A DNA stretch of 56,140 nt from a virus, in the IMG/VR virus record IMGVR_UViG_3300045988_093457, positions 1 to 56,140 of that record; one strand, given 5' to 3'. The notes under the pieces were generated by a model. It worked only from the letters and a program-made list of their open reading frames with translations, did not search any database and was not told where the DNA came from. Below are positions 9,901 through 54,875 of this stretch, piece after piece; within the stretch, counting starts at the first letter, position 1, and each line of letters begins with the position of its first letter. A program made the position numbers and the translations under genes.

Positions 9901-12900
9901 GTCCTACGAGCTGTCTTAAACAATCCGAATACATCCAATTCTACCCTACAGCTAATTGCTGACCATACACAATACAGCTACTTGGCTGACGATGCAAGGC
10001 GCATACTTGCAGAAAGAGACGGCGGCGTGCGACAGATGCTCGGAGAAACCGGAGAAAAATCTTTGTCAGCAGAGGAGACGGCCATCCGTGACGCTGTTAT
10101 TGATAGGCTGCGCAAGTCAGGCTTTGATGTGATAACTGACACAGAAGAAGGGCAAAGGGTGCTTGACGAGGCGAACGGAAGAGGGGTACGCGTAAGGATG
10201 CAGGCCATGCTTGACGGCTTGACGAAAGCGGCAAACACGATACACAGTTGGATTAAAGGCAATAAGCGCGACCGTGTTTTCACAATAGAACTTCCTGAAA
10301 GTACTCAGCGGAAAATAAAGGAGGTCATGGGGCGTGACTTTGACAGTCATAACATAACAGCAAACGGCATAGCGCACGCATTGAAAAACCACGGCATAAA
10401 AGGTAACAAACTGAATAAGAACAGCATACCCTTACGTGAGGAGGACGCGGAACTTATACCATATATAATGACTGCACCCGATTATGTGAAGAAAGCATCT
10501 ACGGACATAAGTGGTCGCGAATCGTTACGTTTCTACAAGGAATTAAGCAACGGCTATGTTGTCGTGGTTGAAAAAGAATACAAAAACAGCCCAAATGATA
10601 TGGAAACCATAACCATGTGGGCTGAAACGTCATCTGAGGCTACCAATGCCCGGCATAAAGCCGTCCCTGATACACACGTCCCAAACGCTATCCTCAGCAC
10701 CGACGCTGCAAAGATACGAAAAGACGCCGAGACTGCAATAGAAAACGACGAGAAAATTCGCGAGCACCGTGTCTATCACGGCAGTGCCGCTGACTTTGAG
10801 GCGTTCGACCACAGCCACATGGGTGAAGGTGAAGGTGCACAGGCATACGGTTGGGGCAGCTACGTGACGGAAGTTGAAGGAATAGGAAGGATGTATGCGG
10901 AAAGAATGGCAGCCGGTGCCCATTCTTTCGCCTCGACAAAATTTCCTTTTACCGTTGAACATGAAAGCCGCGATTACTTAAAAAGAGCTTTCACTGACAA
11001 GCGGATTCGCAACTTTGAAAAAGCAAGGGAAAAGGCTATCAAAGATTGTAATTCTGCATTATCCAAAGCGAAAAAACATAAGGATGATGTATTCGCTTCT
11101 TTTTATAAGAAGTGTTTACAACGTATCACGACAATTTCAGAAGATGAATATAACAACCCTCAATACCGTCATCTCTACACCGTAGAAATTCCCGACGACA
11201 CGGGAGAGAACTACTTGGATTGGTCTAATGAAATATCAGAAGAGCAGAAGAATGATATCTTAAATAGTTTATCAAAACTTAAAAATGAAGCATTTGACTA
11301 TGATTATTTTGCAGAAAAGCTTGAAGATTATGAGGATAATTACAATCTGACAGGCGAAGGACTGTATAAGTTGCTGTCACGTTATGGCTTTGACAATAAT
11401 TACAAAGCCGCATCAGAAGCATTGAATGATATCGGTTTTACAGGTATCTCCTACCCCGCGGAGTACAGAAGCGGAGGCCGTGAGGACGGTGCAAGGAACT
11501 ACGTAATCTTCAACGAGGAAGACCTGAAGATAACGGACCACGTGCACTTTTTCCGTACTCCTAACGGCGAGACCTACGGGTTCACCGTCGGCGGTAGGAT
11601 TTACGTAGACCCGAGAGTGGCGACTGCCGACACGCCGATACACGAGTACGCACACCTGTGGGCAAGCGCGTTGAGACAGGGCAACCCGGAAGAGTGGCGT
11701 AATGTTGTAGGACTGATGAAGGGCACGCCCGTATGGGACGAGGTAAGGCGCAGATACCCTAAACTGACTGCGGACGATGATATAGCCGACGAGGTGCTTG
11801 CGACGTATTCGGGACGGCGCGGTGCGGAACGCCTGAAAGCGGAGACGCGCAAGGCCGTTGATGGCAAGGGCGTATTTGAGGCCGCCCAAGCCGTGACGGC
11901 CATGGAACGCGTAAAAGAGGCACTGCGCAAGTTCTGGAAGGGCGTGGCGGACTTCCTGCACATACACTATACGAGCGCGGAGGAAGTGGCCGACAGGGTG
12001 ATGAGCGACTTGCTGGAAGGCAGAACGCTAAAGGATTCAAAAGAACACGACGATACCGCTAATTTCGCAAAGAAGCACAACCTGAACGAAAAAGACGTGG
12101 AGGACTACGCCGACTATATACGGCGTGGAAACCTAAACGGAGCATCGCGCGCATTCAAAGAGATAAGAAGGAAAGTTCGTCTTGACAATCAGGGAGCAAG
12201 TCTTGGGCAATTTGCGAAAATATTCTCACCGATAGAAAAGGAACTTTACGAGCGGTTTGGCAACATTGATGAATTACGTCAACAATACGTCCAAAGGACT
12301 TTGGATGAGCGCAACGCAATGGAAGCGGCCCGCAAAAAAGCCGAGGAGGAAGCTGAGGCAGAACGCCGTCGTCTGCAAGAGTTTCAGAACATGAGCAGCG
12401 AGCAGCTTGACGCTGAATACATGAAGGCCGTGGAGGCAAACGATGAAATCCGAATGCGCAATCTTGTAAATGAGGCGGCACGCCGCAACGGCTACGGTGA
12501 CGTAGGCAGCGAATACCAAGGTGTTGGCGCATGGAGCGCACCGAGCAATCCCGGCTATGAAAGCGACGAGGAACGACGGGCGGCGGTAGAAAACGATGCG
12601 CCGGATGTAAATATTACCGACATCGCGAACGGATATTCACAGCAACCAAGTGATTATTTCACCAACCTGCGTGCTTATGGTACGGACACAGCACACGGCC
12701 GTGAGAGTGCAGAGGCCATAAACAAGGCCATTGACGAGGTAAGGAACGGCAAAGACCCGATGGTGAAAGTTTACCGTGCCGTGCCTAAGTCAGTAAAGGA
12801 AGGCAAGTTGCGTAATGGCGACTGGGTAACTCCAAGCAGGAAATATGCAGAAATGCACGGCGACAACAGGCTGGAAGGAGATTACCGCATAATAGAGCAG

Positions 12901-15900
12901 GAAGTACCGGCCAGTCAGATATGGTGGGACGGTAACGACATAAACGAATGGGGCTTTGACGACGGAAAGGGATATGCTTACCGAAACACAAAGAACAACC
13001 GCAAGCTGAACGACCTTATAACCCGTGACGACAAGGGCAACATCATACCGCTGTCGCAACGTTTCAACGCAAGAAAGGCTGACGTGCGCTACCGTAACAC
13101 TGAAAATCAAGCAGCAACCGACAATATAGAAGATGTCAATAAGCAGTTTAATCAACAATTGGAAGGACTGACGGAGGAGAACGCCGACAAGGTTACGTTG
13201 TCGTTAGGCAGGCCATCGGCTGTCCTACGTGCGGCTGGCGTGGAGGATAAACCTATGAAGCTGTACGGCAACAAGGTGATTAAGAAGATGCGCAAACACG
13301 GTTTCACGCTTGCCGAAATTAAGGACTTGCCAAGAGCCGTGGCAGACCCGATAGCTGTGTTCAACAACTATCAAAAGAACGGCAACCGCTCAATTCTGAC
13401 AGAACTACAAATTGGCGATAAACATATTCTTGTAAGTGTTACAGTAGGTAAAACTGGTGTAGACGCAGATTTTAATATTGTGTCTTCTGTTTTTGGCAAA
13501 GGGAGCAACAATGTAGTTGATTGGATAAATAAAGGTTATGCTACATTTATAAATAAAGAAAAAGCTCTTGACTATTTGCACTTCTCCGAGAGAAGTATCT
13601 CGGAAGCCTCAGACAATCAAGAGCTTGTTTCTACTGCAAATATAATAAGAAACTTTGAAAATCCAAACGTTTTAGAGGAAAATCTTGTCCCTACGGAACA
13701 AACAAACGACATTGACACCGCCGTTGCCGACACTGCCAATAAGCTGAACATTGGTGTAAGGGTGGCGCACTCGATAGACGAGGTGAACAACGACAGCGTC
13801 CGACGCGCCATTGAGCAAGGCAGAAGAATACAAGGCTTTTATGACACGCGAACAGGCGAGATTGTGGTATATGCGCCTAATGCTGTTGATGCGGAAGATG
13901 CGGTAAGGACTGTGCTTCATGAGGGAGTGGCGCACTACGGATTGCGTCAGCTTGTGGGCGAAGAAAATTTCGGAACGTTCCTTGACAATATATATAATAA
14001 TGTAAGTGATGAAATAAAGTCAAAGATTGACGACATAGCACGGAAGAACAAGCTTAGCACGCAGGTTGCAACAGAAGAGTATCTTGCATCACTGGCAGAA
14101 AACACAAACTTTGAAGATATGAATGCGAGCTGGTGGAATAAGATAAAAGACTTGTTCCTCTCAATGGTGCGCAGCATCGGCCTTAAAGGCTTTTCAGGGA
14201 AAACTCTGTCAGACAATGAACTCCGCTATATCTTATGGCGAAGCTATGAGAACCTGAAGAACCCTGGACGATACCGCAACGTGTTCAGCGAAGCCGAGGA
14301 CATCGCAAAGCAAAATGAGCTTAAAGTCGGTAACTATGCAGTGCGTGAAACAAGAGAAAGCGTTGCTGACAATGACCTGTATCGAGAAGTGGAGCCGGAA
14401 GAGCGCAGAAGAGTTTATGTTGCTGACATATATGATGCAAGAATTAAAAACGGAATGTATCAGATGCGCGAGGCCGTACAGGACAGCATGCTATCGTTAA
14501 GAGAAGCCATGACGGAAATATTGAAGGCCGAAGGCAACAAAAATGTCAAAATAGAAGATATTGCAGGATTTGAGAACGCATACCTTGGAGAAAACAGACT
14601 GTCGTCTGTAAACAAGGCTGAGGCAGATGCTTTTGCAAATCTGCTGTTTAAACCTCTTCTCGAAGAAGCTGCAAATCTTTCAGGTAGTGAGAAAGGCGGA
14701 AGAGACGAACTTGTAAACTACATGATGGCAAAGCATGGCCTTGAGCGTAACAAGGTAATGGCAGAACGAGATGCCAAAAATGAATACGATAATTATGTAA
14801 AAGAGCATCCGAAAGGCGAAAAGACGCTTGATGATTTCATCGAGAAATACAGAAAACGTGATTATGCCGGCCTTACCGCATTAACTGGAAAAGAAAAAGT
14901 TGCCGAGGCAGAGGCAGAAGCACAGCAAATAGTTGATGATTATGAGGCAGAACATGACACAGAAGAATTGTGGAACAAGACACGCGCCGTTTCTAATGCC
15001 ATACTTGACAAAGAATATGACACTGGCTTGATGTCAAAAGACACAATGGAGAAGTTGAAGTCTATGTTTGACTACTACATACCTTTAAGAGGCTTTGATG
15101 AAAAGACAAGCGAAGATGAATATGCTTATCTTGAGAACAAGAACAGCGCGTTCTTCGCTCCTATTAAAGCCGCAAAAGGTAGAAAGTCAAAAGCGGATGA
15201 TCCGTTTGCTTATCTCCAGGGCATGGCCGAAAATGCTATAATGCAGGGCAACAGAAACAAACTTGTAAAGCAGAAGTTCCTGAACTTTGTCTTAAATCAT
15301 CAAAGCGACCTTGCAAGCGTCAGCGACTTGTGGCTGAAGTATAATGAGGTAAATGATGAATGGGAGCCGGTATTTCCTGATAACATCAAAGACACTGATA
15401 CAGCCAAAGAGGTTGAAAGAAAGATGCAGGAGTTTGAAGAAAGGATGCAACAGCTTGCTGAAGAAGAGCCGGAACTATACAAACATGGCAAGCAGACCGT
15501 TGAAGTTCCGTACAGAGTTGTTGAAAGCAGAGATTTAAAGCAGCATCAGATACTTGTGCGTAGAAACGGCAGAAACTATGTTATTACGATAAACGGCAAC
15601 CCAAGAGCAGCGCAGGCCGTAAATGGTCTTACAAACCCTGATAACGATATGTCAGGAGCAATAGGCGCAATCCTTAAAGCAGGACAAAATTTAAATAGAC
15701 AGCTTAGTGCGTTCTATACTACTAGAAATCCTGACTTTGTTGTTTCAAACTTCATTCGAGATGCTTTATATGCAAATAGTATGGCATGGGTAAAGGAAAG
15801 ACCTAACTATGCTTTGCGCTTTCATAAGAATTATGTCTTGGCAAATCCTATAAAGATGAAGAAGCTGTTTGCGAGGTATCGTAAAAATAAACTGAAAGCG

Positions 15901-17379
15901 AACAGCAAAACAGATATGATGTTTAAGCAATTCATGCTTAATGGTGGCGAAACCGGATATGCAAGTGTTCGTGATATAGAAAAACGAAAAAATGAAATAT
16001 CTAAGGAAATAAAGAAGTATCAGGGCAAGTTACCTATTAAAAAGGCATGGGGCTATCTGGCTGAAAGGTTTGACGAATTTAATAGGGCTGTTGAAAACAG
16101 CGCACGTTTTGCCGCCTTTGTTACATCAAGAGAAATGGGCCGTTCAATAGAGCGTTCAATATATGACGCTAAGGAGATAAGTGTGAACTTCAACAAGAAA
16201 GGCAGCGGCTCAAAGTTTATGGGAGCGACAGGACAGACAAAACTCGGTAATGCCGGAGCGTTTATTTCCGGTTTAGGCCGAAGCGGCTTTGTCTTTTGGA
16301 ATGCTGCCATACAAGGATCTACAAACTTTGGCAGACAGGTAAAACACAACCCTGCAAAAGCATTAACTGCTATGGCTACAATGTTTATGTTAGGCGCAGT
16401 TGTCGCATCGCTTGGCTATGGAGATGATGACGATGATGATAAAAACAGTTATTGGAACCTGCCTGACTATGTGCGCAGAAGTAACATCATGTTCCGTGCA
16501 GGTGATCAATGGGTAAGTATTCCGTTGCCTGTTGAATATCGTTCATTATATGGTCTTGGCGAACTTATGATAAGTACTATGAGCGACAAGGAGCATCTTA
16601 GCGGTGATGAAATAGCTAATCAGATAGCCGGCCAGATAAGCCAGGTAATGCCTATTGACATTCTTGAAGGCGGTGGCGGAGCTAAAGCATTTGTCCCCAG
16701 TTTCATAAAACCATTTGCAGAAGCATACGGATATAACAGAAGCTGGACCGGAATGCCTATCTACAAAGACACTGATTTTAACAAGGACTTACCGGAATGG
16801 ACGAAAGCGTATAAGAGCGCAAACAAATATCTTGTTGACTTGTCTGAAACACTTAACGAAGCTACAGGCGGAGATAAGTATACAAAAGGCGAGATTGACA
16901 TTAACCCTGCTAAGATAGAGCATGTCCTGACGGGATATTTTGGCGGTATTGCCAATACTATTGACAGGCTTACTAAAATGGGTGAGACTGCTATAGGACA
17001 ACGCGAATATGATCCGAATAGTATTCTTATATGGAATAGAATAGTAAAGAACGGAGATGAAAGGACTGAATATAAGGCAATAAACAATGAATATTTCAGA
17101 ATAAAGAAAGAGCATGACACGTTAAAAAAACGCTTAAACAATTATGAGCGAGACACTGAAAACGGAGTATTTGACTATGCTGAAAAGATAGACTTCTTAT
17201 ATAACTCACCTGAATACAGGCGTCTTGAAATATACGAAGAGTATCAGCCGGACATAGAAGATTTGATTATTATGCTTGATGAAACAAACGATGCGGACGA
17301 GCAGAGAGATATCGAGGCACAAATAAATGAGCTGAAGAAGATGATGATTTCTGATATAAACAAGTACGCGCGTAAATAG
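3955..17379 (+). CDS. Giant 4,474-aa polyvalent protein (multi-enzyme, probably encapsidated or injected)
   Basis: Uninterrupted 13,425-nt ORF. Several recognisable catalytic motifs are listed as separate features. Its C-terminal part has a hydrophobic segment. Confidence 0.9.
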   Translation: MPNKITYTITTSDGKSHQVDEQNINKYGMQSYADAYKGATIRMRDKDGADYDIPLNRFTQARGQGLRPFRFEHRGTATNTQAGSHAQQVADEYDESVRRTQPRMTAAQKAKMSNWASSFGQNVGQATRQATQALKRQNDARKDNALRVRRENVGVDAAPYKLGENPNVVETSSTYNPQSGKVEKTYLTEAGNEYVGRDVADLEQNIIDDQKAREMDPVNTTLRDAYAERDRLEESMRQRMKEIDEERSNVNPVVRAFADLTESTQGGQAYNPFERYQRDEQYRQLEAAARKNRATIQTLEDKRDNKMNDFFHSIATTAANGYTFNDGLSEINDAIALLDARKHINSINRKQTTGEPLTEEEQAAASVLAADALNAEVQGQYAGDYGAWARAGQMVPTSIDLMKDIMLTPGAGGVAKGVAGKVAGIGTRFLAKQAGETAAKSAAKAIGRSVLKGTGILLGAHTAGAVVSNTAGIGRTIGAMGTNLAGQTVKDAQGNYKVQDSMDVLDAFVDAERNQIRENGSEMFGEFIPGAGGLIKKGLEKIGLSKISNALTNIGNKQWYQQYNRLLTAGGYNGIPGEALEEYEGMAFDALTGNAGETWQQLKDPRTHVDIWLGTAAMSALLGAAPVTIQGAHTAMYYRYKHATDKADRTAAYRFGDNEKWNGLKEVIDNTPNEDMANAVMDIMNDSSLYPEQKTAALNYVRNLTKMCGYNIGQMSNANEESEESKAANESYANGYNTENPEELNQIKNRYEVAREKALQAFPQETLDEIENDNSLLVQYVEAPTLRKIVVDYLNTKQAYDGMIQRVRDDIDTQVQQSNDMIESRINKTTGMIQPAMMKAPDENGNERRAYVISGNVEMLADMSGVDREKSDGSILVRYADTGEMEMVSPSAIMRVDDAISPEQEQQEAETNITQTYAQQKANDIDGKVAFAQGDVYTLTDEAGKVAQVTVVPNKDGIVDNGDGTVNVDAGTGEVVAMPKDAIQIMIDRTNKNKVVQQEEPAAAVTYNLNDDVYVQDENGNIVHGVITGDVNEDGQYEVQTDTPVKNVLVNLYTPDQFVQQPQATTTEQPAAEQAPAEQATEQQPSAEQQPANEQQVEQTQAEAAQEEQKPVIPTDEKGNTLYHQVPVETTINDLYDGKLDDNEIRDFVDANINEADKNLEKVNKKAPKIGTNKAEYLKKKQEWQKQVEDATRIRDYWNSVKNYIAQQTHTTPEEVKAAQDELSGEAARREYQDMGGSVQQDAVSVASDFIRGAKITPESFKAETGYGTDEQRKFVGMIAKAENGGKTIDRLAEELVSYDNAEMNGVLFGGDTSSAKDAILSALQGAGTRGELKQTNEAEEQAYIDARNAARDAQYMEQYGMTYEEYLAYEEQIMPTIWREYNNYDETAFNNMYAEEIEQLIKSRENDTTGEEQADDRGNQVLSEQQVTEQRGSEGGTEPGTEVQAGVQSNNENEAAPEEASGERIPNIERGRQGYTGYIARRQQNNLETSEEINVPLSQNEQDEYGNPMVLAENGSTVFGTIESESGLTEAPIKLSLGENKVGTDGKNHGYGLLHIEAGHGEQIRNAGYQSVEQFVENVAQNYTDIKEGALIGKKQTYLLEVSDEHNNTLFIQLSNDGTYWNVNSAGIFKKKYSRRKPLIYTVPAVGKSTVTDTSEVNSGQSMGATAPAGNSSESKDSDKSAVAQTIDEKIAKAEEETDVNPTEGQKEAGNYKKGHVRIDGYDITIEQPKGSVRRGTDADGKQWEQTMNNTYGYIRGTEGVDGDHIDIFLSDNPTEGNVYVVDQVNPDGSFDEHKVMYGFQSADDARAAYLSNYEEGWKGLGTITEVSKDEFKKWVNSSHRKTKPFSEYKSVNAIGAQNEERVDNTDITPGDLLRAYESGDTKAIEAAESRMRTFIESSDDMKAVAATYFRSKDNSRKYKKDVSSGTYRTQSFIAEACKNALLKAGIPKEAFMGERKRTDFARNTSDARVLDVMSADPSFDVLRAVLNNPNTSNSTLQLIADHTQYSYLADDARRILAERDGGVRQMLGETGEKSLSAEETAIRDAVIDRLRKSGFDVITDTEEGQRVLDEANGRGVRVRMQAMLDGLTKAANTIHSWIKGNKRDRVFTIELPESTQRKIKEVMGRDFDSHNITANGIAHALKNHGIKGNKLNKNSIPLREEDAELIPYIMTAPDYVKKASTDISGRESLRFYKELSNGYVVVVEKEYKNSPNDMETITMWAETSSEATNARHKAVPDTHVPNAILSTDAAKIRKDAETAIENDEKIREHRVYHGSAADFEAFDHSHMGEGEGAQAYGWGSYVTEVEGIGRMYAERMAAGAHSFASTKFPFTVEHESRDYLKRAFTDKRIRNFEKAREKAIKDCNSALSKAKKHKDDVFASFYKKCLQRITTISEDEYNNPQYRHLYTVEIPDDTGENYLDWSNEISEEQKNDILNSLSKLKNEAFDYDYFAEKLEDYEDNYNLTGEGLYKLLSRYGFDNNYKAASEALNDIGFTGISYPAEYRSGGREDGARNYVIFNEEDLKITDHVHFFRTPNGETYGFTVGGRIYVDPRVATADTPIHEYAHLWASALRQGNPEEWRNVVGLMKGTPVWDEVRRRYPKLTADDDIADEVLATYSGRRGAERLKAETRKAVDGKGVFEAAQAVTAMERVKEALRKFWKGVADFLHIHYTSAEEVADRVMSDLLEGRTLKDSKEHDDTANFAKKHNLNEKDVEDYADYIRRGNLNGASRAFKEIRRKVRLDNQGASLGQFAKIFSPIEKELYERFGNIDELRQQYVQRTLDERNAMEAARKKAEEEAEAERRRLQEFQNMSSEQLDAEYMKAVEANDEIRMRNLVNEAARRNGYGDVGSEYQGVGAWSAPSNPGYESDEERRAAVENDAPDVNITDIANGYSQQPSDYFTNLRAYGTDTAHGRESAEAINKAIDEVRNGKDPMVKVYRAVPKSVKEGKLRNGDWVTPSRKYAEMHGDNRLEGDYRIIEQEVPASQIWWDGNDINEWGFDDGKGYAYRNTKNNRKLNDLITRDDKGNIIPLSQRFNARKADVRYRNTENQAATDNIEDVNKQFNQQLEGLTEENADKVTLSLGRPSAVLRAAGVEDKPMKLYGNKVIKKMRKHGFTLAEIKDLPRAVADPIAVFNNYQKNGNRSILTELQIGDKHILVSVTVGKTGVDADFNIVSSVFGKGSNNVVDWINKGYATFINKEKALDYLHFSERSISEASDNQELVSTANIIRNFENPNVLEENLVPTEQTNDIDTAVADTANKLNIGVRVAHSIDEVNNDSVRRAIEQGRRIQGFYDTRTGEIVVYAPNAVDAEDAVRTVLHEGVAHYGLRQLVGEENFGTFLDNIYNNVSDEIKSKIDDIARKNKLSTQVATEEYLASLAENTNFEDMNASWWNKIKDLFLSMVRSIGLKGFSGKTLSDNELRYILWRSYENLKNPGRYRNVFSEAEDIAKQNELKVGNYAVRETRESVADNDLYREVEPEERRRVYVADIYDARIKNGMYQMREAVQDSMLSLREAMTEILKAEGNKNVKIEDIAGFENAYLGENRLSSVNKAEADAFANLLFKPLLEEAANLSGSEKGGRDELVNYMMAKHGLERNKVMAERDAKNEYDNYVKEHPKGEKTLDDFIEKYRKRDYAGLTALTGKEKVAEAEAEAQQIVDDYEAEHDTEELWNKTRAVSNAILDKEYDTGLMSKDTMEKLKSMFDYYIPLRGFDEKTSEDEYAYLENKNSAFFAPIKAAKGRKSKADDPFAYLQGMAENAIMQGNRNKLVKQKFLNFVLNHQSDLASVSDLWLKYNEVNDEWEPVFPDNIKDTDTAKEVERKMQEFEERMQQLAEEEPELYKHGKQTVEVPYRVVESRDLKQHQILVRRNGRNYVITINGNPRAAQAVNGLTNPDNDMSGAIGAILKAGQNLNRQLSAFYTTRNPDFVVSNFIRDALYANSMAWVKERPNYALRFHKNYVLANPIKMKKLFARYRKNKLKANSKTDMMFKQFMLNGGETGYASVRDIEKRKNEISKEIKKYQGKLPIKKAWGYLAERFDEFNRAVENSARFAAFVTSREMGRSIERSIYDAKEISVNFNKKGSGSKFMGATGQTKLGNAGAFISGLGRSGFVFWNAAIQGSTNFGRQVKHNPAKALTAMATMFMLGAVVASLGYGDDDDDDKNSYWNLPDYVRRSNIMFRAGDQWVSIPLPVEYRSLYGLGELMISTMSDKEHLSGDEIANQIAGQISQVMPIDILEGGGGAKAFVPSFIKPFAEAYGYNRSWTGMPIYKDTDFNKDLPEWTKAYKSANKYLVDLSETLNEATGGDKYTKGEIDINPAKIEHVLTGYFGGIANTIDRLTKMGETAIGQREYDPNSILIWNRIVKNGDERTEYKAINNEYFRIKKEHDTLKKRLNNYERDTENGVFDYAEKIDFLYNSPEYRRLEIYEEYQPDIEDLIIMLDETNDADEQRDIEAQINELKKMMISDINKYARK
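9085..9510 (+). other. Domain within the giant ORF: inorganic-pyrophosphatase-like (InPase of polyvalent proteins)
   Basis: GNYKKGHVRIDGYDITIEQPKGSVRRGTDADGKQWEQTMNNTYGYIRGTEGVDGDHIDIFL matches, from memory, the InPase motif of polyvalent proteins. Confidence 0.6.
10759..11540 (+). other. Domain within the giant ORF: H-Y-E-type ADP-ribosyltransferase-like (ART-PolyVal-like), with an insert of roughly 200 aa
   Basis: VYHGSAADFEAFDHSHMGEGEGAQAYGWGSY ... GISYPAEY ... NYVIFNEEDLKI. Confidence 0.5.
11545..11970 (+). other. Domain within the giant ORF: zincin metallopeptidase (MPTase-PolyVal-like)
   Basis: GFTVGGRIYVDPRVATADTPIHEYAHLW. The HExxH codons lie at 11641-11655. Confidence 0.65.
13700..14000 (+). 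other. Domain within the giant ORF: second HExxH zincin-like motif
   Basis: AVRTVLHEGVAHYGLRQLVG. The HExxH codons lie at 13918-13935. Confidence 0.45.
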
Positions 17380-44387: not shown

Positions 44388-45308
44388 TTATTCAAAATAT
44401 TCTTTACATTTAAATCCTTTTCGCGGTTCATAGTCCGCAAATTCGCATTTGAAAAATAGTTCCTTACGATTTGCCCAATGTGCCAAATCTTTTTGCCATT
44501 GAGGTATAATAACATTTCTTTTGTACGGATCCCTGTAAGGCTGTGCAAAAGGAACGCACTTATGATCTTCTTTCCAACAATTTATTCGGTAGAAGCTCTC
44601 CTCAAAATCTATGATAATGCAATACAACAAAAATTCTCCGGTGTATCCGTAACTGCGGACAAGCTGTATAGCACGTAAGCAGTCATTAACCTGCTTTGCC
44701 GTATCGCATCCAAACCTTATGCGCTTTATCCACTTAACTTTTGCCAATAACTTGGCTATTTCTGGAGTAACTAATCGTGCATCCAAAGCCTGATTAAAGT
44801 CAACGTGATATTTACGTGATACAATCTTTTCTATCTGATTGATACCATAATCACATGCCAACGCGTTGTTATCCAGGAGTATTGCATAAGGTCTCTTGCC
44901 GTTTAATGTAACTTCGTCTATATCCATGTATGGCTTGATGTTACCTTCCTTATGAGGAACCACGCACCATTTACAATGATTAGGGCATCCGCGCGTCAGG
45001 AAACCGTATGATGTTCTTGCATCTATGCCTGGATATATTGAATAATCAGGCTGAAGCCTGTCTATTTCTTCAGGTAGCTTAGAATGTATATCATATCCAG
45101 TGCCGCCTTTCACAATGTCAGAAACGTTGCTGATGATATAATTATAATCAGGTGTAAAATTGAATACTTTTGCCATGTACAGCCGATCGTAACTATCAAA
45201 TGAATTATACCATTCAACAGCGTCTCCAGATTGCTTGTGATATGCGCTAATTTTCATAAGGGCCAGATTTGGATAATCGCTGTCAACGGCCAATAATGTT
45301 ATCCTCAT
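44388..45308 (-). CDS. Radical SAM enzyme
   Basis: FLTRGCPNHCKWCVVP contains CxxxCxxC. Confidence 0.75.
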   Translation of the reverse strand: MRITLLAVDSDYPNLALMKISAYHKQSGDAVEWYNSFDSYDRLYMAKVFNFTPDYNYIISNVSDIVKGGTGYDIHSKLPEEIDRLQPDYSIYPGIDARTSYGFLTRGCPNHCKWCVVPHKEGNIKPYMDIDEVTLNGKRPYAILLDNNALACDYGINQIEKIVSRKYHVDFNQALDARLVTPEIAKLLAKVKWIKRIRFGCDTAKQVNDCLRAIQLVRSYGYTGEFLLYCIIIDFEESFYRINCWKEDHKCVPFAQPYRDPYKRNVIIPQWQKDLAHWANRKELFFKCEFADYEPRKGFKCKEYFE

Positions 45309-50132: not shown

Positions 50133-50854
50133 TATTTTATAGTCAATATTATTTGTTCTGCTTTATTTATTTTTTCTTCCAAAAGTTTCATATCCGCCTC
50201 GTCCGGATATATTCTCACTATATGTATAGGATGTTGCTGCCACGGGCAATATGCTACGAAATCGCACCATTCTGCGCCTGTACACATCATGTGGCTTTGG
50301 CACTGCCAGTAGTATTCAGGTTTGACTTTCTTCAGCGTCGCATTGTCCTTAACTTCACAACGATAACGCATATAGCTTTCCTGGTTCGGACATTTTATCT
50401 CAACGCAACCGCTCTTTCCGTCGCCGTCGTCTGCAATAAAGCCGTCAGGACTTGACGCGAAGTGCGGTATTGTCTTGTGTGCTACGCTGCCTCGTTCAAC
50501 TACTGCATATCCTTTCAACTTAGCGTACAGCTGTCTTGCGTACTCTTCTTGTTCTGTGCCCCAACGCATGGCCTTTGTCTCAACGTTCGTGATGTTCAGA
50601 TATTCGTCAAACAGATTATCGTCATTCACGACCAGCGGGTTCATGTATCTTGTTGCCGCTACGTTATATATATAGCTGTTAGCTGTTTCGGAGAAGCCGT
50701 CTGAGCGGCTCTCCTTTGTAAGTTTCCACACATTGCTGCCGGTGAAGTTCCCGAGCCGCGCCCGGTACCAGCCCAGAGTGTGCTGTTCGCTTTCTTTTAT
50801 TTTATCATCTACACCAGCAGCAGATGATACATCTATTGTTATCGCATCATTCAT
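50132..50854 (-). CDS. YqaJ-type viral recombinase exonuclease
   Basis: GWYRARLGNFTGSNVWKL N-terminal motif. Coupled to recT. Confidence 0.75.
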   Translation of the reverse strand: MNDAITIDVSSAAGVDDKIKESEQHTLGWYRARLGNFTGSNVWKLTKESRSDGFSETANSYIYNVAATRYMNPLVVNDDNLFDEYLNITNVETKAMRWGTEQEEYARQLYAKLKGYAVVERGSVAHKTIPHFASSPDGFIADDGDGKSGCVEIKCPNQESYMRYRCEVKDNATLKKVKPEYYWQCQSHMMCTGAEWCDFVAYCPWQQHPIHIVRIYPDEADMKLLEEKINKAEQIILTIK

Positions 50855-51645
50855 AACAGATTACCTTCCTTAACTTTGTTGTCGGTTTTCTTTGTCTTTG
50901 CAGGCTTAGCCTCTTCAACAGCCTGTTCAGCCATCATCGACAGCTTGTCTTTGTTGGTAAGGTCCACATATTCCGCGTCTACCGTATCTTCAGCTTCTTC
51001 TTTTGTCAAGAATCCCATACTGATCTCTGGCGAATACACTCTTGACCACCATGCTGCAGCTCTATACCTCAGCATAAGTTTCGCCATTGTGCGCCATTTA
51101 CTTCCAGATTTCGTGTACCAGCCTTCTTTAATGGCTGTTTCAATCGACACCGGGTTACTCTCAAGTATCTCACCTGTAGATAACTCTGTTGCATAGGCGA
51201 TGCACTCATAGTTGTCAATGTTCGTTCCGTCAAACTCAAGTTCTACGATTGTGTTCTTCTTCAAGACAGGATCGTATCTCGTCTCGTTGTATTTTATTTT
51301 ACCGACCTTGCCGAGATTTCGTTCTCTGTATTTAAGCGATGTAAACTTACCGCACATGTTGATTGTTGATATCAAGAAGGCCGATCCCCAACGTGGTGTA
51401 CCTTTGATGATATTCAGGTTCTGCATCACCATAAGCGGATTTACATTCATTCTCATCGCCATATCAACGGTGATGATACAGTTTCCAATATTCTCTCTGT
51501 AAATGTCAGGTACAATAGTACTTTCAGCGTACATCTTGCCCATGCGCTGCATAACTTCAAATTGTTTTACCGTCTGCCCCACAGGTGTCAGGGCAAACTC
51601 TGCAGCTTGCTTCGCCTGTATAATCTGCATTTCTTGATTATCCAT
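50851..51645 (-). CDS. recT: RecT-family single-strand annealing protein
   Basis: KWRTMAKLMLRYRAAAWWSRVYSPEISMG motif. Confidence 0.8.
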   Translation of the reverse strand: MDNQEMQIIQAKQAAEFALTPVGQTVKQFEVMQRMGKMYAESTIVPDIYRENIGNCIITVDMAMRMNVNPLMVMQNLNIIKGTPRWGSAFLISTINMCGKFTSLKYRERNLGKVGKIKYNETRYDPVLKKNTIVELEFDGTNIDNYECIAYATELSTGEILESNPVSIETAIKEGWYTKSGSKWRTMAKLMLRYRAAAWWSRVYSPEISMGFLTKEEAEDTVDAEYVDLTNKDKLSMMAEQAVEEAKPAKTKKTDNKVKEGNLL

Positions 51646-51967: not shown

Positions 51968-52120
51968 TTATTTGTACAGCAACTTGTACCATGACTTGTA
52001 CAAAGTCTTGCCGTAGATTGTTGCAAACCACGCAAAAGCTATAACTAACGCCGTTGCATCACCTGTCATGCAGGTGTGCATGAATGCTGCTACGTTGGCA
52101 GCGATAACTAACTTTTTCAT
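51968..52120 (-). CDS. 50-aa hydrophobic peptide P1 (paralog of 53616-53768)
   Basis: Hand-translated as MKKLVIAANVAAFMHTCMTGDATALVIAFAWFATIYGKTLYKSWYKLLYK. Confidence 0.55.
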   Translation of the reverse strand: MKKLVIAANVAAFMHTCMTGDATALVIAFAWFATIYGKTLYKSWYKLLYK

Positions 52121-52150
52121 ATATATTGTTTTTTGTTTTCCAATTTAAAG

Positions 52151-52174
52151 CCGGTGAACCTCACGGCGGACCGG
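52151..52174 (-). other. Conserved-loop hairpin, copy A
   Basis: CCGGT-GAACCTCACGGCGG-ACCGG. A T-rich run follows on the minus strand. Confidence 0.6.
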
Positions 52175-52225
52175 GGATTGAGCGTCCTAAATGCTCCATT
52201 TTAAAATGATTAAAGTAAATTATAG

Positions 52226-52290
52226 CAGGATATGCAAGATTCGAACTTGCATAGGTGCGTCCACCTGTTTTACCGTTGAACTAATATCCT
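52226..52290 (-). tRNA. tRNA-like gene 1: only 65 nt, with a truncated anticodon arm
   Basis: Acceptor AGGATAT/ATATCCT, D-arm GTT-CAACGGTAA-AAC and T-arm GCAAG-TTCGAAT-CTTGC. The middle is AGGTG-GACG-CACCT, a 4-nt loop. Confidence 0.5.
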
Positions 52291-52328
52291 CCAGTTGTCT
52301 TTCCAACTTGTCTTATCTGCACAGATAG

Positions 52329-52442
52329 TGGCGAAAGCAGGATTCGAACCTGCAAGGACTTACAAAGGTTTTACCGCGGTCTCAACCTAATGCCATTCCT
52401 TCCTTTTGGTTGGAATACGTTTACCAATTTCGTCATTTCGCC
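52329..52442 (-). tRNA. tRNA-like gene 2: 114 nt, with no canonical anticodon arm
   Basis: Acceptor GGCGAAA/TTTCGCC, D-arm ACG-AAATTGGTAAA-CGT and T-arm GCAGG-TTCGAAT-CCTGC. 62 nt lie between the D and T arms. Confidence 0.55.
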
Positions 52443-52445
52443 AGA

Positions 52446-52463
52446 TACCCACCGAAGTGGGTA
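52446..52463 (-). other. cUUCGg tetraloop hairpin 3 nt upstream of tRNA-like gene 2
   Basis: Minus strand reads TACCCAC-TTCG-GTGGGTA. Confidence 0.6.
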
Positions 52464-52660
52464 CTACTAATCACACTATTACAACGAAATAATCTTGTTT
52501 AAAAAATATGTTATTTAACTCTGTTTTTATGATTTTAAATTAATTCAAACGCTGATTATAAAATATTGATATTCAGCGGTCCGTCACGTGTGAAATATGT
52601 TTGCATCGTTAAAATTTTAGTTATTAATAATTAGGCTTTCGCCTGTTTGGTCTCGTAAAA

Positions 52661-52688
52661 ACTTCGGGAACTTCACAGCGGCCGAAGT
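52661..52688 (-). other. Conserved-loop hairpin, copy B
   Basis: ACTTCGG-GAACTTCACAGCGG-CCGAAGT. TTTTAC follows on the minus strand. Confidence 0.6.
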
Positions 52689-52752
52689 GTGCAATGAAAA
52701 ATTTACAAAAAGAAAATTCTTCAACTGTTGTTATGTCATCATCTTGTTAGCG

Positions 52753-52860
52753 TGGTGCCGGCAGGATTCGAACCTGCATGAGCTTTCTGCTTTGAGTAAC
52801 CCTTCCGGCTGGGTAAAGCTCCAGTACTCGTCGCGCGTCTACCAATTCCGCCACGACACC
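52753..52860 (-). tRNA. tRNA-like gene 3: 108 nt, type-II (Leu/Ser-like) D-arm, no canonical anticodon arm
   Basis: Acceptor GGTGTCG/CGGCACC, D region GGCGGAATTGGTAGACGCG (as in bacterial tRNA-Leu) and T-arm GCAGG-TTCGAAT-CCTGC. 57 nt lie between them. Confidence 0.55.
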
Positions 52861-52933
52861 GAAACCGGAGAGCTTCGCAGTGGCCCGGGTGGTCATATAA
52901 AGATTTTCAGTTCATAATTTGAGAATTTAAAAA

Positions 52934-52957
52934 TGCACGAGCCTCACGGCGGGTGCA
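52934..52957 (-). other. Conserved-loop hairpin, copy C
   Basis: TGCAC-GAGCCTCACGGCGG-GTGCA. TTTTTAAATT follows on the minus strand. Confidence 0.6.
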
Positions 52958-53352
52958 GGTGTATAGAAAAAAACATCTAGGTGAATAGCACCGCTGTGCT
53001 TTAAGTCAAACTAAACATGAAAAACACTTAACTGATCTTAGTGCCGGCGCCCGATTCCATCGCAGCCAATTTAATGACAGCGCCGGCTATATGTAGTTAT
53101 GGTAAATTATAACTAATGTTCTTCCAAAATATATAGCCCCTACTCGCGTCCTCGCTGCCGTGTCATAGATTGTCAGTCTCTACAGCAGCTTCGCTTTCGT
53201 CTTTTGTCCCATAATGTCAAAGATCTATTTTCCAAAGTCTACCCTTGCGGCTTACGCGTCAAATGACATTGCGCTTCGGAACTTCGTAGTGGTGCCGCCG
53301 CTCTCGCTGCGTGATGCGAGCCTTCAACTCTCCCGGCACCTGATTAAAATGG

Positions 53353-53664
53353 CTAAAAGTAATCTTGCATTATATGTTGGGCTTCTCTAAGCTCCTTCAT
53401 GAAGTATTCAACCTTTCCGGGGCGCTTGCACGGATGCAGCTTGCCTTCTCTGCGCCAGCGGTCCACATTGCCGCGGCCAAACATCTTGTAGGCCTTTCGC
53501 TGACTTATCATCTCAGGATCAGCGGCCTGTTCTTTTAGCTGTCTGACGACTTCAGCGGCGATGTCTTTAACGAGGACTTCGTAAGAAACCGTGCAGTCAG
53601 GAAAGTTTATTGCGTTCATCTGTTGAAATGTCTTATCCAGGTTCTGTACAAATCTTTCCAGCAT
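53353..53664 (-). CDS. Excisionase/MerR-like HTH protein
   Basis: ISQRKAYKMFGRGNVDRWRREGKLHP. Confidence 0.5.
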   Translation of the reverse strand: MLERFVQNLDKTFQQMNAINFPDCTVSYEVLVKDIAAEVVRQLKEQAADPEMISQRKAYKMFGRGNVDRWRREGKLHPCKRPGKVEYFMKELREAQHIMQDYF

Positions 53665-53768
53665 GTGTAGCCCATAAACGTGAAGGCTACAAATAAGGCT
53701 GTAGCGTCAGCCGTGCGTGCTGTGTGTATGAATGTGAGTATTACTGCTATAATTGATATTGTTTTCAT
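53616..53768 (-). CDS. 50-aa hydrophobic peptide P2 (paralog of 51968-52120)
   Basis: Hand-translated as MKTISIIAVILTFIHTARTADATALFVAFTFMGYTCWKDLYRTWIRHFNR. Overlaps the next gene's start by 49 nt. Confidence 0.5.
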   Translation of the reverse strand: MKTISIIAVILTFIHTARTADATALFVAFTFMGYTCWKDLYRTWIRHFNR

Positions 53769-54224: not shown

Positions 54225-54875
54225 ATGGAAACATCTGTAAAACAGCGACTTATACAATTTATTAAATACAAAGGTATAGGTCAAGGTAAATTTGAAAAAG
54301 CCGTAGGTTTGTCGAACGGATTTGTAAATAATATCAGAGTATCTATAACGCCTGAAAAATTACAGAAAATAGCTCTGTATTATCCTGAATTAAACAAATC
54401 ATGGTTATTAACAGGTGAAGGCGAAATGTTAAACAACGAAATACAGAAAACGGCAGAAAAAGATTTGCTGTCTGACTACGAAACTTATCTTCTGCCTATG
54501 ACAACTCATGCCGGAGGCCTTAACGAAGTCTCTGCAGACGGAACTCTTCTGCAAAATTGCGAAAAGGTCATATCGCCAATCAAGGGTGTTGACTTTGCAA
54601 TAACGGTGTATGGTGAGAGTATGGCCCCTGAATATCCTTCAGGCTCCAGGCTATTAATAAAGCGCATAGATCCTTCAATATTCATCGACTGGGGCAAGGT
54701 GTTTGTGCTTGATACAAGTAACGGCGTGATTGTAAAAGAAGTGCATACGTGCGAAAAGGAAGGCTATGTCACTTGCCATTCTATAAATCCCGATCCGAAA
54801 TACGCCGATTTTATAGTACCTCTTTCAGAGGTCTACGGTATGTATAGGGTATTAATGTGTTTGTCAGCAAAATAA
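54225..54875 (+). CDS. CI/LexA-type repressor (HTH plus S24 peptidase)
   Basis: N-terminal HTH (QGKFEKAVGLSNGFVNNI) and a C-terminal GESMAPEYPSGSRLLIKR ... VIVKEV Ser/Lys dyad. Confidence 0.8.
   Translation: METSVKQRLIQFIKYKGIGQGKFEKAVGLSNGFVNNIRVSITPEKLQKIALYYPELNKSWLLTGEGEMLNNEIQKTAEKDLLSDYETYLLPMTTHAGGLNEVSADGTLLQNCEKVISPIKGVDFAITVYGESMAPEYPSGSRLLIKRIDPSIFIDWGKVFVLDTSNGVIVKEVHTCEKEGYVTCHSINPDPKYADFIVPLSEVYGMYRVLMCLSAK

Follow-up and report, generated by a model that had tools for sequence, protein, structure and literature searches.

The DNA analyzed here is IMG/VR virus record IMGVR_UViG_3300045988_093457 (positions 1 to 56,140, one strand; the whole stretch of 56,140 nucleotides (nt) is referred to as the window), and its subject is a cluster of three transfer RNA (tRNA)-shaped genes that lack an anticodon arm (Table 1). 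The window holds most of a tailed-phage genome, including genes for a portal, a large terminase and a head protein. The host belongs to the Bacteroidales; among cultured phages, a match was obtained only with Bacteroides phage BS-TP2, whose host is B. salyersiae. An earlier note, compiled from the letters of this DNA, had placed three tRNA-derived genes here, and the matches to the Rfam tRNA family (RF00005) have the same boundaries and lengths (gathering score of 29 bits; E of 1e-5 to 1.5e-4 for the whole 56-kilobase (kb) window).

Table 1 Features of the RNA cluster and its surroundings, in window positions (bp, base pairs; L162, a metagenome contig with related genes)
Feature	Position	Strand	Sequence, support or remark
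Gene 1, minimal 65-nt tRNA-shaped RNA	52226-52290	minus	Rfam tRNA, 41.6 bits
Gene 1 stub, at the anticodon-arm site	52253-52266	minus	AGGUG-GACG-CACCU (5-bp stem, GACG tetraloop); fold and Rfam alignment
Gene 2, 114-nt tRNA-shaped RNA with 63-nt insert	52329-52442	minus	Rfam tRNA, 42.6 bits
Gene 2 long arm (RNA 42-89), 48-nt interrupted hairpin abutting the T stem	52354-52401	minus	minimum-free-energy fold
Gene 2 apical 8-nt palindrome	52373-52380	minus	ACCGCGGU; GCCAUGGC in the L162 copy (3266-3273)
Gene 3, 108-nt tRNA-shaped RNA with 57-nt insert	52753-52860	minus	Rfam tRNA, 38.3 bits
Gene 3 insert (RNA 27-83), in place of anticodon and variable arms	52778-52834	minus	nearly invariant across differing frames
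Gene 3 linker, proposed pseudoknot 5' strand	52825-52829	minus	GAGUA, pairing with UACUC; invariant in 24 of 24 sequences
Gene 3 helix P1, 5' strand	52815-52821	minus	GAGCUUU, partner 52780-52786; covariation
Gene 3 hairpin P2, stacked on P1	52799-52814	minus	ACCC-AGCCGGAA-GGGU; fold with the tRNA helices constrained
Gene 3 proposed pseudoknot 3' strand	52794-52798	minus	UACUC, within the 12-nt bulge UACUCAAAGCAG between P2 and P1
Gene 3 helix P1, 3' strand, at the variable-arm position	52780-52786	minus	AAAGCUC, 2 nt before the T stem
Hairpin 2 nt upstream of gene 1	52293-52308	minus	AGUUG-GAAAGA-CAACU
UUCG hairpin 3 nt upstream of gene 2	52446-52463	minus	UACCCAC-UUCG-GUGGGUA; kept in L162
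Hairpin 4 nt upstream of the gene 3 5' end	52865-52888	minus	
GUGA-loop repeat, copy A	52934-52957	minus	core CCGCCGUGAGGCUC, then a run of U
GUGA-loop repeat, copy B	52661-52688	minus	CCGCUGUGAAGUUC, then a run of U
GUGA-loop repeat, copy C, 51 nt downstream of gene 1	52151-52174	minus	CCGCCGUGAGGUUC, then CUUUAAAUU
CI-like repressor	54225-54875	plus	
Xis-like gene	53353-53664	minus	leftward early operon
RecT	50851-51645	minus	leftward early operon

tRNA architecture without an anticodon loop

In the RF00005 alignments, the acceptor stem, D arm and T arm of each gene are placed with near-maximal posterior probability, and the alignments break only between the D and T stems. The unaligned region measures 4 nt against 9 expected in gene 1, and the insertions amount to 31 + 27 nt in gene 2 and 43 + 11 nt in gene 3. 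This is the pattern that the earlier note had described: the acceptor, D and T arms are convincing, and a canonical anticodon arm is missing. All three genes combine a 7-bp acceptor and a D arm containing G18G19 with a T arm made of a 5-bp stem and a UUCRANY loop; none of them shows a 5-bp anticodon stem whose 7-nt loop carries U33, an anticodon triplet and a purine at position 37. The features of a type-II tRNA-Leu (a D arm with 3-bp stem, A14 A15 and G18G19 placement, together with U48 and A73) are present in genes 2 and 3, which bears out the type-II D region noted earlier for gene 3; gene 1 is not Leu-type.

The gene 3 frame is made up of the acceptor GGUGUCG/CGGCACC, a Leu-type D arm (GCGGAAUUGGUAGACGC), the T arm GCAGG-UUCGAAU-CCUGC and discriminator A, and no CCA is encoded. 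Gene 2 combines the acceptor GGCGAAA/UUUCGCC with the D arm ACGAAAUUGGUAAACGU and discriminator A; exactly this D arm (ACGAAAUUGGUAAACGU; UGACGAAAUUGGUAAACGU) is also present in phage tRNA-Leu(CAA) and tRNA-Leu(UAG) genes whose variable arms are short. As a side observation, the tRNA-Leu(CAA/UAG) genes of L098, L111, L123 and L133 have a Leu-type D arm but a 5-nt variable loop and are class-I-shaped. Gene 1 has the acceptor AGGAUAU/AUAUCCU, the D arm UAGUUCAACGGUAAAAC and discriminator G; phage tRNA-Thr-like genes have an identical D arm, which is also found with inserts of 43-45 nt. The gene 1 stub that had been drawn by hand was reproduced by folding. The same capped-stub design occurs, with unrelated sequences, in 69-70-nt genes of other phages, and related tRNA-shaped genes have loops of 3, 4, 5, 9, 10 and 16 nt.

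With default settings, ARAGORN reported no tRNA and no transfer-messenger RNA (tmRNA) anywhere in the window, which therefore contains three tRNA-shaped genes and zero canonical tRNAs. With introns allowed, two weak, forced models were returned, a Leu-UAG tRNA with a 19-nt intron for gene 2 and a Ser-ACU tRNA with a 22-nt intron for gene 3, each with one or two mismatches among the five pairs of the proposed anticodon stem. Standard tools do not fold these genes as ordinary Leu, Ser or Tyr tRNAs; such a fold is what the earlier note had named as counting against its own reading.

The genes also fall outside other known RNA classes. A cmscan search of 52150-52950 with E up to 10 gave no intron, riboswitch, ribozyme or other family within any insert; its matches were the tRNA family, a sub-threshold SpF41 match over gene 1 and sub-threshold snR50, Plastid-psbI-rps4 and SAM/SAH matches outside the inserts. 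Membership of gene 1 in SpF41 (RF02435) is not supported, at 27.8 bits and E 0.043 against a gathering score of 52. A group I intron (at least about 200 nt, with a group I core and flanking anticodon-arm halves) was not found in the inserts of 57 and 63 nt. The tmRNA assignment likewise failed with ARAGORN, and genes 3, 2 and 1 have U-A, C-G and G-C, respectively, as pair 3:70; the inserts contain no open frame with a stop codon and no resume signal. Finally, a YrlA or Y RNA-like identity is disfavored by the lack of an Rfam match, by RNA ends that lie within the acceptor stem and by the absence of a Ro/Rsr-like protein among the annotated window proteins.

Inserts under purifying selection

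Gene 3 is represented by 85 copies, with 24 distinct sequences, in pattern scans of IMG/VR and other sources; the copies come from gut phage contigs and BS-TP2, and one lies on a 1.5-kb Paraprevotella clara contig. When 52100-53000 was compared with 50,697 phage records by blastn in distant mode, only the 108-nt gene matched, at 93-96% identity in BS-TP2 and a human faecal contig, and the flanks were not alignable. In BS-TP2, gene 3 fills an unannotated 150-nt gap with co-oriented DUF2303 and NinG genes on either side. These 85 loci, together with the second occurrence of genes 1 and 2 in metagenome contig L162, indicate that the genes are not products of chance.

The acceptor stems of the gene 3 copies differ completely by lineage. 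They read GGUGUCG/CGGCACC, GGUAUCG/CGAUACC, GGAGAAG/CUUUUCC or UGCGAUA/UGUCGCA, and the T stems differ as well (GCAGG/CCUGC versus CCCGG/CCGGG). On at least four such frames, the 57-nt insert is variable at only about six positions. Among the 24 distinct sequences, 99.7% of the pair cells in the alignment are standard, compared with 25-45% when the 3' partners are slid, and pairs changed on both sides are found in the acceptor (six of seven), the T stem (two of five) and P1 (one of seven, a G-C to A-U change in five sequences). The RNA structure is under purifying selection, and the long-range helix P1, one of the pairings picked out by the earlier note, is real and covaries in homologs. The P2 stem is invariant within this close family.

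A covariance model of the family retrieved a divergent homolog, L170, at 85.4 bits. In L170, P1 reads GUUGUAAU/AUUACAGC and P2 reads ACG-GUUCGAAA-CGU, and the linker CGAUGAGUACUGG and the bulge UUACUCAAAACAG are unchanged. When L170 is added, five of the seven P1 pairs are changed on both sides, in an alignment that is model-fitted and leans towards the structure. A distant analog, L213 (58.7 bits), has the same layout as gene 3, with UAUGA/UCAUA at the equivalents of GAGUA/UACUC. Judging from these complementary strands, the GAGUA/UACUC pairing, noted earlier as a possible stem, fits an H-type pseudoknot, which is probable.

Several smaller observations concern the same gene. A 20-mer of the insert (TACCCAGCCGGAAGGGTTAC) occurs once in 185,579 species-representative genomes, on the gene 3-bearing P. 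clara contig; this rarity in host genomes argues that the insert was not copied from a common host RNA. A resemblance of the insert to signal recognition particle RNA or to the sarcin-ricin loop was considered by eye and is without Rfam support. The gene 3 loop holds a CCGG palindrome, which is broken to CAGG in the variant L095/L096. In several phages (L004 625-694, L023 1461-1530, L030, L052, L058, L061 and L075), gene 3 is preceded, at a distance of about 70 nt, by a tRNA-shaped gene of 70 nt; this gene carries G3:U70, the alanine identity element, has a 6-bp stem closed by 3 nt where an anticodon arm would be and is called 'tRNA-Asn(AUU)' by ARAGORN.

Genes 1 and 2 are far less readily found. 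Their exact 21-mers are not present in IMG/VR, the gene 2 insert pattern is not present in the metagenome collection, and homologs were recovered only through synteny with RecT. The gene 1 copy in L162 is identical. The gene 2 copy is 92% identical, with nine substitutions that all fall in the distal half of the long arm; none of the nine breaks a predicted pair, and pair 63:70 changes from A-U to G-C. Four substitutions convert the apical octamer ACCGCGGU to GCCAUGGC, and the palindrome is still perfect. Loop-loop dimerization through this palindrome is a speculative reading of its sequence. Palindromes are also seen in other insert loops, as in an 82-nt family (for example L010, minus strand) with UUGCGCAA and CAAUUG, a side observation that hints at loop-loop dimerization.

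The covariation in P1 bears on the view that these are real decoding tRNAs, with loops either interrupted by removable introns or expanded for quadruplet or unusual codons. Both forms had been offered by the earlier note; the view is now largely refuted and appears highly improbable. It draws on the ARAGORN intron models Leu(UAG) and Ser(ACU), on a CAA triplet that lies in a loop-like context in both inserts and may be a vestige of tRNA-Leu(CAA), and on the 4-bp stems with 8-nt loops that had been described in genes 2 and 3 and do exist there. The proposed anticodon stems are nevertheless mismatched at one or two of five pairs, no 5-bp/7-nt arm with U33 and a purine at position 37 can be restored, and 'introns' of 19-22 nt are far too small for self-splicing. 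To our knowledge, bacteria lack the archaeal/eukaryal splicing endonuclease, and self-splicing bacterial introns are far larger than 19-22 nt. The gene 3 model moreover splits P1, placing one strand in the 'intron' and the other in the 'variable arm', and because this helix covaries across the supposed splice boundary it is fatal to the intron model. Expanded loops fare no better: the 8-nt loops are without U33, the gene 1 loop has 4 nt, the loops of relatives range from 3 to 16 nt, and the phage reading frames are intact in the standard code with no recoding evident. The third suggestion of the earlier note, that the genes are tRNA mimics, is the one towards which the evidence points, except that a role as decoys for anticodon nucleases is unlikely because there is no anticodon loop to recognize.

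Exchange of frames and inserts, and tRNA-like flanks

The RecT-synteny search yielded three close relatives of the phage, which differ in the content of the RNA cluster. L162 contains gene 3 (99%), gene 2 and gene 1 and, in addition, another tRNA-shaped gene and another reading frame. Of the three genes, L161 carries just gene 3, and L093 retains no more than the gene 3 frame, filled with a different insert. At the same locus in L093, the 5' part of gene 3 (26 nt) recurs unchanged and its 3' part (25 nt) essentially so, with an unrelated 102-nt insert between them. The extra unit of L162 lies between genes 3 and 2 and consists of a 101-nt tRNA-shaped gene (2403-2503) with its own frame, insert and GUGA hairpin; the L162 counterpart of repeat copy B is found 3 nt upstream of this gene, which the window lacks. 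A 160-aa (amino acid) reading frame occupies 2648-3130 of L162, and the counterpart region of the window is 52443-52752. Relative to L162, exactly one unit (tRNA-shaped gene, trailer and hairpin) is missing from the window. The difference resembles a deletion between hairpin repeats, and units thus seem to be gained and lost in the manner of cassettes.

Such presence or absence of whole units in L161, L162 and L093 could also be expected if the genes were non-functional remnants, such as tRNA pseudogenes, integration scars or homology patches for recombinases, and recombination could make use of the conserved D and T arms and of the repeated hairpins. Covariation largely refutes this explanation, which retains very little probability. 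Both acceptor halves are present and covary, which is unexpected for attachment-site fragments; nearly all pair cells are standard across the 24 distinct gene 3 sequences; the insert is conserved at the nucleotide level across unrelated phages; and U48, U at position -1 and C at position +74 are maintained, as described below.

The class is widely distributed. A scan of IMG/VR for the Leu-type frame, defined as GGCGGAATTGGTAGACGC followed by a gap of 61-91 nt and GGTTCGA, gave at least 120 loci. Among the matches listed, 105 pass an acceptor-stem check and carry at least 81 distinct inserts, which form at least 64 families with no 9-mers in common between families. At least 28 insert families are carried by the single frame AGUCAGG/CCUGACU, and 78 of the 120 loci listed contain no canonical tRNA. 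For the phages with the AGUCAGG frame, blastn with one element gave no match, and a neighboring helicase shows only about 31% identity with crAss-like phages. Of the 81 inserts, 54% combine a terminal helix of 6 bp or more adjacent to the T stem with linker-interior pairing of 5 bp or more, compared with a mean of 22% and a maximum of 31% in 30 shuffles. The test is crude, and the result is consistent with a common architecture of these sequences. The 8-mer AUUGAAAC, which relates to an idea of CRISPR-repeat mimicry, occurs once in 5.7 kb of inserts.

A control argues that the aberrant class belongs to these phages and not to the scanner. To be counted by the shape scanner, a T arm had to be accompanied by a complementary acceptor, by U8 and by a D stem with GG. 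In 100 Bacteroidales-phage loci it gave 149 matches of 65-154 nt, 27 of which (18%) received an ARAGORN call with a 3-nt anticodon, and these calls are forced, with mismatched stems and no U33. In 64 marine-phage control loci it gave 153 matches, and 138 (90%) received such a call; these are ordinary tRNAs of 71-75 or 84-90 nt.

Two observations made in these scans stand on their own. In L219 (1250-13269), more than 20 matches to the frame model fall in one 14-kb viral stretch, a dense array of tRNA and tRNA-shaped genes of 73-142 nt. In addition, about 55 marine or environmental contigs (L097-L160; for example L099 10797-10890) have in common a gene of 86-90 nt that encodes an unusual type-II tRNA: its D arm is Leu-type, its variable arm is long, and its anticodon loop reads CUGUUUA or UUGUUUC, with the anticodon GUU and a pyrimidine at position 37.

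The core contacts and the immediate flanks of the elements are those of tRNAs. Position 48, the last base of the insert and the Levitt partner of A15, is U in 79 of 81 inserts among the matches listed. U precedes the 5' end (position -1) in 64 of the 84 Leu-frame elements listed, compared with 72 of 101 canonical control phage tRNAs, and U at this position is a preference of RNase P. C follows at +74 in at least 68 of the 84, compared with 81 of 101 controls; the genomes contain about 19% C, and no more than two of these elements encode CCA. Genes 1-3 all have C at +74. U48, U at -1 and C at +74 may be read, from sequence, as signs of folding into an L shape and of passage through tRNA maturation.

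Another possibility, considered distinctly unlikely, is that the RNAs are chargeable tRNA mimics. Their frames would come from tRNAs with anticodon-blind synthetases, Leu above all, and they would act through the aminoacyl end by occupying leucyl-tRNA synthetase or EF-Tu, by entering ribosomes codon-free like tmRNA or by donating the amino acid to a transferase. Genes 2 and 3 retain every element of the E. coli-type tRNA-Leu identity set, namely A73, A14, A15-U48 and a G18G19 placed as in Leu-type D loops. Discriminator A is found in 84 of the 85 gene 3 copies and in 66 of the 84 Leu-frame elements listed, and one 70-nt family has the alanine identity pair G3:U70. Since C74 is kept and CCA is rarely encoded, a CCA end is probably made, and the order of acceptor, D arm, pseudoknotted insert, T arm and acceptor is that of one-piece tmRNA. 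On the other hand, A73 is essential for leucylation in the systems studied, and the discriminator is not A in 21% of the Leu-frame elements listed. Identity elements are also inconsistent within frame families; for example, G3:U70 is missing from close relatives of the 70-nt genes. Neither the window nor the neighborhood of the elements yielded an aminoacyl-transferase, SmpB-like or synthetase-like gene, and the inserts have neither a reading frame nor a resume signal and give no ARAGORN tmRNA.

The upstream flanks commonly carry hairpins. In 66% of the tRNA-shaped genes, compared with 18% of random positions, no more than 6 nt separate the end of a stable hairpin from the 5' end; by the same measure, canonical marine tRNAs give 38% compared with 11% at random. 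Most of these leader hairpins have an inner 3-4-bp stem and a GUGA tetraloop, and in many a run of U follows. In the window, the GUGA repeat core CCGCYGUGARGYUC occurs three times against 0.03 expected, always on the minus strand and within the cluster. Each repeat has an inner 3-bp stem, a GUGA tetraloop and a CC/UC internal loop, and the outer stems vary yet stay paired. GUGA hairpins of a similar kind precede tRNA-shaped genes in unrelated phages. The repeats could be terminators, protectors of RNA ends, protein-binding sites or cassette boundaries.

These hairpins, and genes without an insert such as gene 1, support the main rival explanation, a cis-acting punctuation, which is possible though rather unlikely and may coexist with a carrier role. 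Here, the tRNA shape would recruit RNase P and the 3' tRNA-processing nuclease to the early polycistronic transcript, with the excised piece as a by-product. The 5' cut would leave an upstream RNA ending 0-12 nt past a hairpin that shields it from 3' exonucleases, and the 3' cut would create a new 5' end for the downstream message. Precedents for such a scheme are MALAT1 with mascRNA and the tRNA punctuation model of mitochondria. The retained U at -1 and C at +74 fit such a role. RNase P and RNase Z do not require an anticodon arm, which could then shrink to a stub, as in gene 1, and in BS-TP2-type phages the next start codon follows about 10-20 nt after the RNA. Punctuation leaves unexplained, however, why a near-invariant 57-nt insert should be kept on rewritten acceptors across unrelated phages, and why compensatory changes occur within inserts. 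In the window, three RNAs lie within about 1.2 kb with no frame between them, so there is little to punctuate, and the canonical control tRNAs are themselves enriched for upstream hairpins.

Early-operon position and proposed carrier function

The three genes have the orientation of the leftward early operon, which also holds genes for a YqaJ-type exonuclease, SSB, HU and a DnaD-like loader and, by eye from its translation, a VRR-NUC-like protein. They lie in about 1.2 kb without a convincing reading frame at the head of this operon, beside the repressor and before the recombination genes. The same position is seen in all three cases checked. The window has three tRNA-shaped RNAs with RecT and YqaJ, L014 has four with Erf and RecE, and L086 has two at the operon head and one more 4 kb downstream, its recombination genes not being annotated; the position is common to the three although their recombination proteins are unrelated.

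Annotation of 40 window proteins with PHROGs and Pfam identified RecT, YqaJ, SSB, HU, the DnaD-like loader, a radical SAM protein, a PcfJ-like protein, a methyltransferase, an HNH protein, the portal, the terminase and the CI-like repressor; neither a dedicated protein partner for the RNAs nor a tRNA-related enzyme is among them. When 1,716 neighbor proteins of the 120 listed loci were clustered, the commonest family was present at only 12 of 120, and no dedicated linked protein family emerged. The neighbors, assigned by eye, are early or recombination genes (NinB, SSB, NinG, YqaJ and DUF2303-like). As no neighbor family is common, host factors are indicated as partners.

The reading favored here, with moderate confidence, is that the genes encode non-decoding carrier RNAs that are processed as tRNAs, are made early in infection and bear inserts acting in trans. 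The frame keeps what maturation and the tertiary fold need, namely the 7-bp acceptor, the D arm with G18G19, the T arm with UUCGAAU and the A15-U48 pair, with the interval between D stem and T stem replaced by a capped stub in gene 1 and by a structured insert in genes 2 and 3. The RNAs would be co-transcribed with the leftward early operon, between the CI-like repressor and the RecT, exonuclease and SSB genes. RNase P would then free the 5' end and tRNA processing the 3' end, the CCA-adding enzyme would add CCA, and the mature RNAs would accumulate as stable L shapes. In such a molecule, the tRNA body would be a carrier for processing, folding and stability, and the insert would be the active, exchangeable part (a helix-hairpin with a pseudoknot in gene 3, a long arm with a palindromic tip in gene 2). 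The insert would most likely bind a host or phage macromolecule in trans; action on host factors is suggested by conservation across unrelated phages, the lack of a linked protein and of an antisense target, and the immediate-early position. A purpose in host takeover or counter-defense appears most likely, a speculative assignment made by analogy with pseudo-ToxI and RNA anti-CRISPRs and prompted by the immediate-early position and the swapping of modules.

A number of points weigh against this reading. Gene 1 and the other 65-70-nt genes have no insert, so that in them the frame itself must function, which the carrier idea fails to explain. Terminator-like hairpins and U runs directly upstream of many genes raise doubts over how much transcription reaches them, and the case for maturation is built entirely from sequence signals. 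On the structural side, the alignment that includes L170 was fitted to the model structure, and its pair counts lean that way; the gene 3 pseudoknot is invariant in the close family, its support coming from one distant analog (L213) and a crude enrichment test. The diversity of inserts on one frame could arise partly from weak constraint rather than from an arms race. A search of the phage genome for antisense targets of the inserts gave only chance 11-mers and T-arm self-matches, and the inserts have no Rfam match at E up to 10.

A broader form of the carrier reading is put forward more tentatively. In it, the genes would belong to a general phage RNA cassette of the Bacteroidota, and probably of other groups, in which a tRNA chassis, mostly Leu-type, carries interchangeable pseudoknotted domains that each modulate one host protein; the at least 64 insert families would then be an RNA counterpart of anti-defense islands. 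Host tRNA enzymes would mature the RNA within the first minutes of infection, and the domains would act as aptamer-like inhibitors or modulators of a defense nuclease, a toxin or a translation factor. An arms race would diversify these domains, and recombination in the conserved D and T arms would shuffle them.

tRNA-like non-coding RNAs are already known, including SpF41, YrlA, the tmRNA domain, mascRNA and the herpesvirus vtRNAs; the stable RNAs of the T4 tRNA cluster are also of this kind. The phage genes share with canonical tRNAs and type-II tRNA-Leu the 7-bp acceptor, U8, G18G19, the T arm GGUUCGAAUCC, A15-U48, U-1 and C+74. Unlike these tRNAs, they replace positions 27-47 with a stub or a structured domain of 57-110 nt and cannot decode. 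The same design principle underlies the engineered 'tRNA scaffold' of Ponchon and Dardel (2007), in which the anticodon arm is swapped for a structured RNA and the product is reportedly processed, L-shaped and nuclease-resistant; that scaffold is a laboratory construct, whereas the phage elements are natural and widespread and often replace the variable region too. The tRNA-like domain of tmRNA has the same strand order (acceptor, D arm, pseudoknot insert, T arm, acceptor) and likewise no anticodon, but genes 1-3 have no G3:U70 and no tag frame, their insert is 5-10 times shorter and their D stem is intact. The MHV68 TMERs and MALAT1/mascRNA are non-decoding tRNA-like folds that recruit RNase P or RNase Z and thereby release an RNA or define its ends. 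The leader hairpins beside the phage RNA 5' ends recall the MALAT1 arrangement; these eukaryotic systems carry their cargo beside the tRNA-like fold, whereas it lies inside the fold in the phage RNAs. Pseudo-ToxI mimics and RNA anti-CRISPRs are small, structured, modular phage RNAs, some of them pseudoknotted, that neutralize host defense proteins and pass from phage to phage. The likeness to these is hypothetical and one of function only, and neither is built on a tRNA frame.

SpF41 is a tRNA-like small RNA from accessory or strain-specific regions of Streptococcus genomes (PMC6064168). Like gene 1, it has an acceptor-like helix, an unpaired D-like region, a 5-bp/4-nt hairpin at the site of the anticodon arm and a GGUUCGAAUCC T arm; gene 1 differs in falling below the family threshold, in having no terminator hairpin and in its host phylum. 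YrlA, a bacterial and phage Y RNA-like molecule, joins a module that mimics the tRNA acceptor, T and D parts to a second functional module (PMC4201824), but its topology is permuted, in that it ends in a Ro-binding stem and its 'acceptor' is closed by a loop. Full-text literature searches found no description of the present RNA class, the nearest being a catalog of viral structured-RNA candidates that mentions unspecified 'tRNA-like' candidates (PMC10690425). The apparent novelty lies in a widespread phage system that uses a tRNA chassis for dozens of unrelated inserts, which are structured and swappable.

Standard tRNA finders miss these genes or miscall them (as 'Arg-GCG' or 'Asn-AUU'), and this introduces systematic errors into phage tRNA inventories, codon-usage arguments and 'hypothetical intergenic' regions across a large group of phages from the gut and the environment. 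The elements show which tRNA parts are retained without decoding (the acceptor/T minihelix, the D/T elbow, the 15-48 pair, U-1 and C+74) and so constitute a natural experiment on the needs of the maturation machinery. If the inserts do act in trans, they would represent a natural modular system for stable structured RNAs in bacteria and a large library of RNA domains selected against host targets, of use in the discovery of defense systems and as RNA-expression parts for Bacteroides. Because BS-TP2 is cultured and its host is known, the prediction is testable at once.

Finally, a few features of the window were recorded beside the RNA genes. Two paralogous hydrophobic frames of 50 aa, MKKLVIAANVAAFMHTCMTGDATALV... 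(51968-52120) and MKTISIIAVILTFIHTARTADATALF... (53616-53768), both on the minus strand, lie on either side of the RNA cluster. The radical SAM protein is encoded in the early region (44388-45308, minus strand; phrog_9298, E 9e-107), with no link to the RNAs found, and its gene is followed by those for two proteins of 256 and 279 aa without a family match. On the plus strand, one reading frame of 4474 aa extends over 3955-17379 amid the structural genes.

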